From Escherichia coli (lineage in GTDB: Bacteria > Pseudomonadota > Gammaproteobacteria > Enterobacterales > Enterobacteriaceae): a stretch of 64,000 nt of DNA. The notes under the pieces are model-generated. The model had not been told where the DNA came from and searched no databases. It was given only the letters and a program-made list of their open reading frames with translations. Within the stretch, counting starts at the first letter, position 1. The number at the start of each line of letters is the position of its first letter. Made by a program: the position numbers and the translations under genes. The stretch lies in the NCBI RefSeq assembly GCF_041886205.1, contig NZ_CP169029.1, one strand, 5' to 3'. Positions 28,338-29,105 of the stretch are shown in pieces.

Positions 28338-28894
28338 TATGCAAGCCTCACAATATAGTTAAATGCGATGTTTTTGACGGTGTTTTCCGCGTTACCAGCA
28401 GCGTTAACGGTGATGGTGTGTCCATGTGAACCAATCGCAACGGAGTGCGTGTGTGCACCAATACCGACAGTATGTGCGTGTGCACCTGCAGATGCTGCTG
28501 TGCCGGACAGTGAGTGGCTATGGTTACCATCTGTACTGGTATTAGCTAACGCCCCCGTAGACATACCTACTGAGCCTTGTACACCCCAGGTATTTTGACC
28601 TGAGCTTGTATAACCATATTGATAAGTATCTTTAAAAACACTGGGGTTAAATCGACGGCCATCTCTATGGCTGTGATTACCAGCTGCATTCGTGCTGCCA
28701 CTTAAACTATGGGTATGATGCGCACCAGTGTTATTCGTGGATTTAGTGCCGTAATCAAACGACGATGTGGTTTTCGTCCCCAAATCAGTACTGGATGCGC
28801 TGGCGCTGTGGGTATGCGATTTTATGCCGTCCTGTTCCTGAGACAATACGGCACGACCACTGGCGGGCTTGCCCTTAATCGTCCAGCCACGCAT
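28337..28894 (-). pseudogene. stf: side tail fibre Stf, C-terminal fragment only
   Basis: 185 aa matching the His/Gly-rich C-terminus of lambda Stf; N-terminal part absent, fused to a lom remnant. Confidence 0.75.
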
Positions 28895-29105
28895 AGCTGA
28901 ATGACGTCACCAGCCCCAGTGTGTCCGTAAACTCATAACGGTATTTCACGTTAATCCCGTTCAGATCATCACTGCCGGGGACGTTCGTCGAGGCATGAAG
29001 ATACCCCGCGCTCAGCGTGGACTGATGTTCAGACGCCCATGCAGGCGCACCGGATACGGCCAGACAAATGGCTGCGGACAAAATTGCTGCACAAACTTTA
29101 CGCAT
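28875..29105 (-). pseudogene. lom: outer membrane protein Lom, N-terminal 70 aa fragment
   Basis: signal peptide and first beta-strands of lambda Lom, then an abrupt junction into stf sequence. Confidence 0.75.

Follow-up and report, generated by a model that had tools for sequence, protein, structure and literature searches.

The join between lom and stf in the defective lambda-like Escherichia coli prophage described here is very probably the scar of a single deletion of about 2.9 kb, to judge from its base-by-base agreement with intact relatives. Read on the minus strand, lom breaks off after 72 codons and is followed by the last 185 codons of stf. The prophage lies in a 64,000-nt stretch of contig NZ_CP169029.1 (RefSeq assembly GCF_041886205.1), called the window below, and all positions are counted from its first letter (Table 1). 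A first-pass annotation made from the letters alone had placed a deletion joining an N-terminal lom fragment to the C-terminus of stf at 28860-28900, and BLAST comparison with intact relatives confirms it and narrows the join to five nucleotides, TATGC, of which the intact relative has one copy in each of the two genes. The most likely origin of the join is RecA-independent, microhomology-mediated illegitimate recombination. Biologically, this is ordinary prophage decay, and it is new only as an instance and as a correction of an existing annotation.

Table 1. Features of the prophage remnant around the lom/stf join (window coordinates) and the alignment blocks used to map it
Feature	Position	Strand	Remarks
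att-lambda core, bio side	25693..25707	-	exact match to GCTTTTTTATACTAA; partner core at 45634-45648
MASE4-GGDEF diguanylate cyclase	26348..27679	+	intact cargo gene downstream of tfa; domains from Pfam
tfa, tail fibre assembly protein	27753..28337	-	194 aa, intact; PF02413 (Caudo_TAP), E = 1.2e-43
stf', 3' remnant of stf	28337..28894	-	185-aa ORF; begins at Met 803 of the 986-aa intact Stf
lom' pseudogene	28875..29105	-	76-aa ORF; Lom residues 1-72, then WLDD and a stop from out-of-frame stf
lom/stf deletion junction	28891..28895	-	sole kept copy of the 5-nt microhomology TATGC
Terminator-like hairpin	29136..29153	.	G+C-rich, with flanking A/T runs; in the J-lom spacer
J', 3' two-thirds of tail-tip gene J	29176..31397	-	from about codon 426; Pfam Ig_J, Ig_J_second, Phage_Tail_Tip, Ig_GpJ_C
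I/J deletion junction	31396..31398	-	about 1.5 kb lost, out of frame
I', 5' part of tail assembly gene I	31397..31901	-	99.3% identical to lambda; PF06805
Chimeric 265-aa ORF	31799..32596	-	N-terminal part of a TET-associated glycosyltransferase, in frame with the NlpC/P60 end of K
Megablast block 1	32077-31393		L006 12001-12686; 99.6% identity
Megablast block 2	31398-28891		L006 14183-16690; 98.7%; J to lom nt 215
Megablast block 3	28895-25000		L006 19544-23425; 98.9%; stf nt 2406, tfa, diguanylate cyclase, ybhB

Mapping of the junction

What did the region look like before the deletion? The prophage at att-lambda in E. coli 700481 (locus L006) is intact at the same site and was therefore used as the pre-deletion model. 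It carries the same diguanylate cyclase gene and is about 99% identical to the remnant across K, I, J, tfa and the cyclase, the difference being that its head and tail genes are complete (J of 1,165 aa, lom of 199 aa, stf of 986 aa and tfa of 194 aa). Megablast of the window against this locus gives the three blocks listed in Table 1. Left and right BLAST alignments to intact relatives overlap by exactly 5 nt at the lom/stf join; the two TATGC copies of L006 lie at 16686-16690 and 19544-19548, and the window keeps one. Between the two flanks, 2,858 bp of L006 are missing and one TATGC copy has gone; lom has lost its 3' two-thirds and stf its first 802 codons, and nothing remains of the spacer between the two genes. 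The left breakpoint is at lom nt 215, in codon 72, and the right one at stf nt 2406-2410. At these points the parental lom reads ...TTCAGC TATGC AGGAGAC... and the parental stf ...CCCTGA TATGC GTGGCTGG..., and the window reads ...TTCAGC TATGC GTGGCTGG..., with no filler or inserted DNA at the join in the base-by-base comparison with L006. The join is therefore built as a deletion scar would be: the flanks are collinear, a short direct repeat stands at both parental breakpoints and one copy of it is retained. Compared with phage mEp460 the breakpoint falls at the identical position, and the gap is larger (about 2.97 kb) because the mEp460 stf is longer. At the two breakpoints themselves even L006, the best comparator, reaches only 96% identity, and the size of the ancestral deletion therefore hinges on the number of 132-nt shaft repeats in the ancestor's stf.

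How often would a random deletion end in such a repeat? Among 200,000 simulated lom/stf breakpoint pairs in the intact sequence, at least 5 ambiguous bases were found in 0.6% (P ~0.006); the 5-nt microhomology at the join is more than chance. An Rfam scan of 25600-33600 placed no structured RNA family at the junction.

Could the join be an artefact, a collapse of the assembly within the repetitive stf? The gene does contain 132-nt tandem repeats and many short alanine/serine-rich repeats, but the breakpoints lie outside the stf repeats and share 5 nt only. Moreover, the identical junction is present in the complete genome of strain wlxctx60, which is distinct from the window (there are 12 mismatches between them, and a 1.3-kb IS is present in the window only). 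As the junction is common to at least two close relatives that were independently assembled, an assembly error is unlikely, and we give a collapse within stf hardly any credence.

What remains of lom, stf and tfa

The join is out of frame, and the Lom frame reads A-W-L-D-D-stop across it, in agreement with the first-pass description of a Lom that is recognisable for about 70 residues. Reading in the stf frame resumes at codon 803 of Stf, an internal ATG inside the microhomology; the observation that the 185-aa stf ORF starts within a few bases of the end of Lom was thus also right, and the two ORFs in fact overlap (28894 versus 28875). Upstream of the internal methionine lies lom sequence rather than stf.

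The lom' product matches the Pfam family Ail_Lom (PF06316) with E = 1.4e-42, over profile positions 1-74 of 199 only, and includes the signal peptide and the first strands. Homology to the family, signal peptide included, is therefore present, and the full-length barrel (about 170-200 aa, covering the whole profile) is absent. On this evidence lom' is to be classed as a gene fragment and no Ail/Lom family member in the functional sense. Between lom' and the intact sibling, 68 of 71 Lom residues are identical, and over 220 nt its DNA matches the intact lom of many E. coli genomes without a difference (100%). Alignment to lambda, which had been proposed as a check, gave a divided answer. The stf' product is indeed the C-terminal end of Stf, with 68% identity to residues 115-314 of lambda orf-314 (E = 3e-82), but lom' does not come from the lambda allele: its identity to lambda Lom is only 35%, and the allele is that of mEp460 and many E. 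coli prophages.

The stf' product corresponds to the intact sibling's 986-aa Stf from residue 803 as far as the C-terminus, has Phage_fiber repeat matches in Pfam and carries the His-rich receptor-binding end. Of the features of a side tail fibre it thus keeps the C-terminal His-rich region, and it lacks the N-terminal tail-attachment domain and the long shaft, together about 800 aa. Compared with the best intact stf alleles it is 99.5% identical (559 versus 556 nt), the sole difference being a 3-nt insertion. This insertion adds a histidine codon at 28715-28725, giving GAHHTHS instead of GAHTHS. None of the stf C-termini examined in IMG/VR has GAHHTHS (91 have GAHTHS), and it is also absent from the best E. 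coli matches; the extra codon probably arose by slippage in the His-rich repeat after inactivation. Is the 185-codon ORF provided with signals of its own? By eye, no Shine-Dalgarno-like sequence stands upstream of its ATG, and a promoter scan between the lom start and this ATG found nothing. The one minus-strand promoter match, at 28846-28819, is located just downstream of the ATG, within the ORF, and the total for the region is inside the shuffle range.

Downstream, tfa follows stf' directly and is full length, as the first-pass annotation had stated. Its product is 94% identical to lambda Tfa, with 194/194 aa aligned, and the gene has 1 mismatch in 585 nt to the intact sibling. The Rfam model IS009 (RF02111) matches inside the tfa coding sequence (27796-27994, minus strand; 225 bits, E = 5e-56). 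This model appears to correspond to tfa-homologous DNA and not to a separate RNA gene.

Might the short lom and stf ORFs instead be complete as they stand, native to a phage lineage whose tail fibre is minimal? In strain EC01, RefSeq does treat the gene of a 168-aa 'phage tail fiber repeat family protein' as normal, and C-terminal stf pieces of similar size recur in the H5/H6 Qin and EC01 remnants. Yet the EC01 and H6 examples sit in gutted prophages, beside fragments of terminase, portal and J genes, and lom' stops short at profile position 74 of 199 and has out-of-frame codons at its end. The stf breakpoint sequence has a normal upstream stf in 122 of 122 usable IMG/VR contexts. The first-pass annotation had named native full-length status of the short ORFs in a related phage as what would overturn its reading; the contiguous lom'/stf' arrangement occurs in none of the 200 matching phage records, and among 5,426 complete E. 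coli genomes only wlxctx60 has it. A native origin of the two ORFs is therefore extremely unlikely, and we return to the deletion scar as the preferred reading.

Proposed mechanism of the deletion

We propose that the ancestor was a prophage at att-lambda with the late gene order J - lom - stf - tfa - diguanylate cyclase. In one step of illegitimate recombination, the TATGC at nt 211-215 of lom would have paired with that at nt 2406-2410 of stf, about 2.86 kb downstream of it; the DNA between the repeats would have been lost and one copy retained. The event could have taken place by replication slippage (copy-choice) or by microhomology-mediated end joining, and a microhomology of 5 nt fits slippage and end joining alike. 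The enzymatic route is in this sense a part of the model that we infer. As for the consequences, Lom is cut after residue 72 and could not form its eight-stranded barrel, Stf is left without its tail-attachment N-terminal domain and the whole shaft, and tfa and the cargo gene are unaffected by the deletion. Neither lom' nor stf' is expected to make a working protein.

Why illegitimate recombination? A 5-nt microhomology together with the lack of a long repeat is the signature of illegitimate, and not of homologous or site-specific, recombination. That long repeats in lom and stf recombined homologously was considered and rejected: no direct repeat of at least 12 nt was found linking the two breakpoints.

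Site-specific recombination deserves a closer look. The usual work of DNA invertases of the Pin/Gin/Cin type is to exchange the C-terminal part of a tail fibre gene, and the join might accordingly have been made by such an enzyme at a crossover site on the boundary of the constant and variable parts of stf. A serine recombinase is encoded just downstream of tfa in related phages and remnants (in mEp460, and as pinQ in H6), and the exchangeable C-terminal module begins close to the breakpoint. Exchange of stf among phages is, moreover, held to be driven by invertases (PMC3945230). In the prophage and in its intact sibling, however, tfa is followed by the diguanylate cyclase gene and not by a recombinase. 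The nearest matches to the crossover core AAACCNNGGTTT, with up to 2 mismatches allowed, are at 27265 and 29842, and their number over the window is what chance gives; the sequence common to both sides of the join is 5 nt and not a 26-bp site. With no invertase gene and no AAACCNNGGTTT match near the junction, an invertase-mediated join was rejected and has, in our estimation, next to no chance of being correct.

The stf breakpoint in other remnants

Two other prophage remnants have lost internal parts of stf, the Qin prophage of H6 (L002 6860-6875) and a prophage of EC01 (L007 3175-3185), with a common left breakpoint after ..LLVEG(F), which may reflect common ancestry, a preferred boundary or coincidence. 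In EC01 the right breakpoint is 49 nt downstream of that of H6 and the frame is restored, so that a mini-Stf of 66 N-terminal and 168 C-terminal aa results. Only about 2-6 nt separate the end of the H5/H6 Qin deletion from the stf breakpoint of the window; the H6 deletion has a 4-nt microhomology of its own if an stf allele with GATTTGCG is assumed.

Does this closeness mean that the join was made in two steps? A Qin-like stf deletion allele, as in H5/H6, would first have been acquired by recombination, and a second deletion would then have extended from lom to the junction already present. At their right breakpoints, the H5/H6 deletion and that of the window overlap by about 2 nt, and the first 61 nt past the junction are identical in the window and H6, where L006 has three mismatches. 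This scheme, however, needs two events where one is enough, and it offers a poorer microhomology (TGC, 3 nt) than the TATGC (5 nt) of the intact allele. Intact stf alleles that equal stf' bar one codon exist in many genomes, so that the similarity to H6 is allelic, and the H6-type junction is found in H5/H6 only. We therefore regard the two-step history as very unlikely and retain a single deletion between intact lom and stf.

A deletion hotspot at the stf breakpoint was likewise rejected. The 24-mer just past the breakpoint lies in normal stf in all of the 122 usable IMG/VR contexts, the H6-type junction is confined to H5/H6, and the overlap is taken as coincidence. It is also conceivable, and in our judgement improbable, that the C-terminal stf module and tfa are kept as a useful host-range cassette for infecting lambdoid phages, with the start of the module (..PDMRGW..) as a preferred boundary for deletion and recombination; a hint of this boundary comes from H5/H6, whose Qin remnant is unrelated and has an overlapping breakpoint.

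Distribution and age

The search of 5,426 complete E. coli genomes was made with window positions 27700-32700. The one genome with contiguous lom'/stf', wlxctx60, is a near-identical relative, with 12 substitutions over about 40 kb, and is without the 1,311-bp IS3-family element of the window. About 240 genomes match in three pieces that span about 8.8 kb instead of 4.4 kb, strain 700481 being the best of them.

How old is the deletion? The fragments differ from the sibling prophage by 17 substitutions with 2 amino-acid changes, a pattern that looks like allelic mosaicism derived from functional genes and not like drift after inactivation. As lom' is 100% identical to intact alleles and stf' is off by one private codon, the deletion looks evolutionarily recent in these comparisons. 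The change that followed it, none in lom' and one private 3-nt insertion in stf', is too little for a date or for a test of selection.

Other deletions in the remnant

The lom/stf join is one of several. The first-pass annotation had read it, together with the I/J junction, as repeated erosion of tail genes, and this view is borne out and extended by a third junction, in K. The I/J join connects I nt 406 to J at about nt 1278 through a 2-nt microhomology, TA, next to an ACGGT near-repeat. The third junction is at 32077/32078, where homology to K starts abruptly (window 32077 = L006 12001). In the chimeric ORF that spans it, Pfam finds the TAGT domain (PF20691) at aa 15-175 and NLPC_P60 at aa 178-242. 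The remnant holds at least three deletions, at least two of them with short microhomologies, and all spared the cargo genes. The event at the K junction removed all head genes and most tail genes, and RefSeq names the chimera 'GREB1-related protein'.

Prophage context and cargo

Two exact att-lambda cores, where none is expected by chance, delimit the remnant of about 20 kb between ybhC and ybhB-bioA. On the minus strand the order is J', a 70-nt spacer, lom', stf' and tfa, followed by the convergent diguanylate cyclase gene on the plus strand. The J-lom spacer is identical to L006 at 70/70 nt, and its hairpin is unchanged from the intact prophage. The diguanylate cyclase gene is 99.6% identical to the copy in the intact sibling. 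It is AT-rich, lies between tfa and attR and is intact while the adjoining tail genes are deleted.

The matching annotation of wlxctx60 gives the wider gene content: int, xis, Ea8.5, a fragment of replication protein O, ren and emrE; then ybcN, ninE, rusA, quuD, a porin and lysis genes; and finally trkG, a ParB-like gene, the 'GREB1-related' glycosyltransferase and tail-gene pseudogenes. With this content the element is a gutted lambdoid prophage that has lost all of its head genes and most of its tail genes.

Comparison with known prophages

The late region of lambda, J-lom-stf-tfa, has the same gene order and att site as the remnant, and the I and K genes of the remnant are 99% identical to lambda. 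The stf gene of Ur-lambda is intact. The laboratory phage lambda PaPa, which carries a frameshift in stf (PMC3945230), resembles the remnant in that its side tail fibre is knocked out and its tfa is intact; the split of lambda stf is displayed as orf-401 / orf-314 in the annotation of J02459. In lambda PaPa, however, the lesion is a 1-nt frameshift, whereas here it is a 2.86-kb deletion that also took two-thirds of lom. In its C-terminal domain, J of the remnant follows mEp460 (91% identity) and not lambda (76%), and the b-region of lambda is replaced by the diguanylate cyclase gene.

Rac, Qin and DLP12, defective lambdoid prophages of E. coli K-12 and relatives, are comparable remnants, with lysis genes, cargo (trkG, emrE, porin) and pieces of stf and tfa left after multiple deletions, and the H5/H6 Qin remnant even retains the same 185-codon stf end together with tfa. 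These prophages differ from the present one in their integration sites and breakpoints, and the remnant at att-lambda has lom fused to stf, with a junction that one complete genome (wlxctx60) also carries. A full-text literature search found no paper on this lom/stf junction.

What does the junction mean in practice? It corrects the annotation of wlxctx60, in which the region is given as a 'frameshifted' Lom pseudogene that runs 300 nt into stf sequence, followed by a 'hypothetical protein' fragment, and it is a base-resolved example of the stepwise reduction of a lambdoid prophage. In Rac and Qin, the stf/tfa regions have sequence identity to lambda, and an infecting lambda can recombine with them (PMC3945230). 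For this reason the remnant, too, may still donate host-range determinants, its cassette of stf end and tfa being open to pickup by an infecting lambda. The practical value is small.

Further observations in the window

Between attR and the diguanylate cyclase gene, the spacer is AT-rich and has a match to the Rfam family CssrB, a Shigella chromosomal sRNA (26056-26151, minus strand), which is below threshold, with 44 bits versus a gathering score of 76 (E = 1.6e-6).

A continuous ORF of 263 aa for the ParB-like protein (32568-33359, minus strand) adjoins trkG. A 1,531-nt query that includes this ORF falls just short of full identity in wlxctx60 (99.9%), where PGAP calls a ynaK pseudogene and a 'hypothetical protein'. 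The module of ParB-like and glycosyltransferase genes is found at 99% identity or more in about 900 genomes.

The IS3-family element (1,311 bp, 39898-41208) is inserted in the prophage ybcN and has terminal inverted repeats of 25 nt (TGAACCGCCCCGGG...). Its orfA lies at 39952-40278, and its orfB is split into two ORFs.
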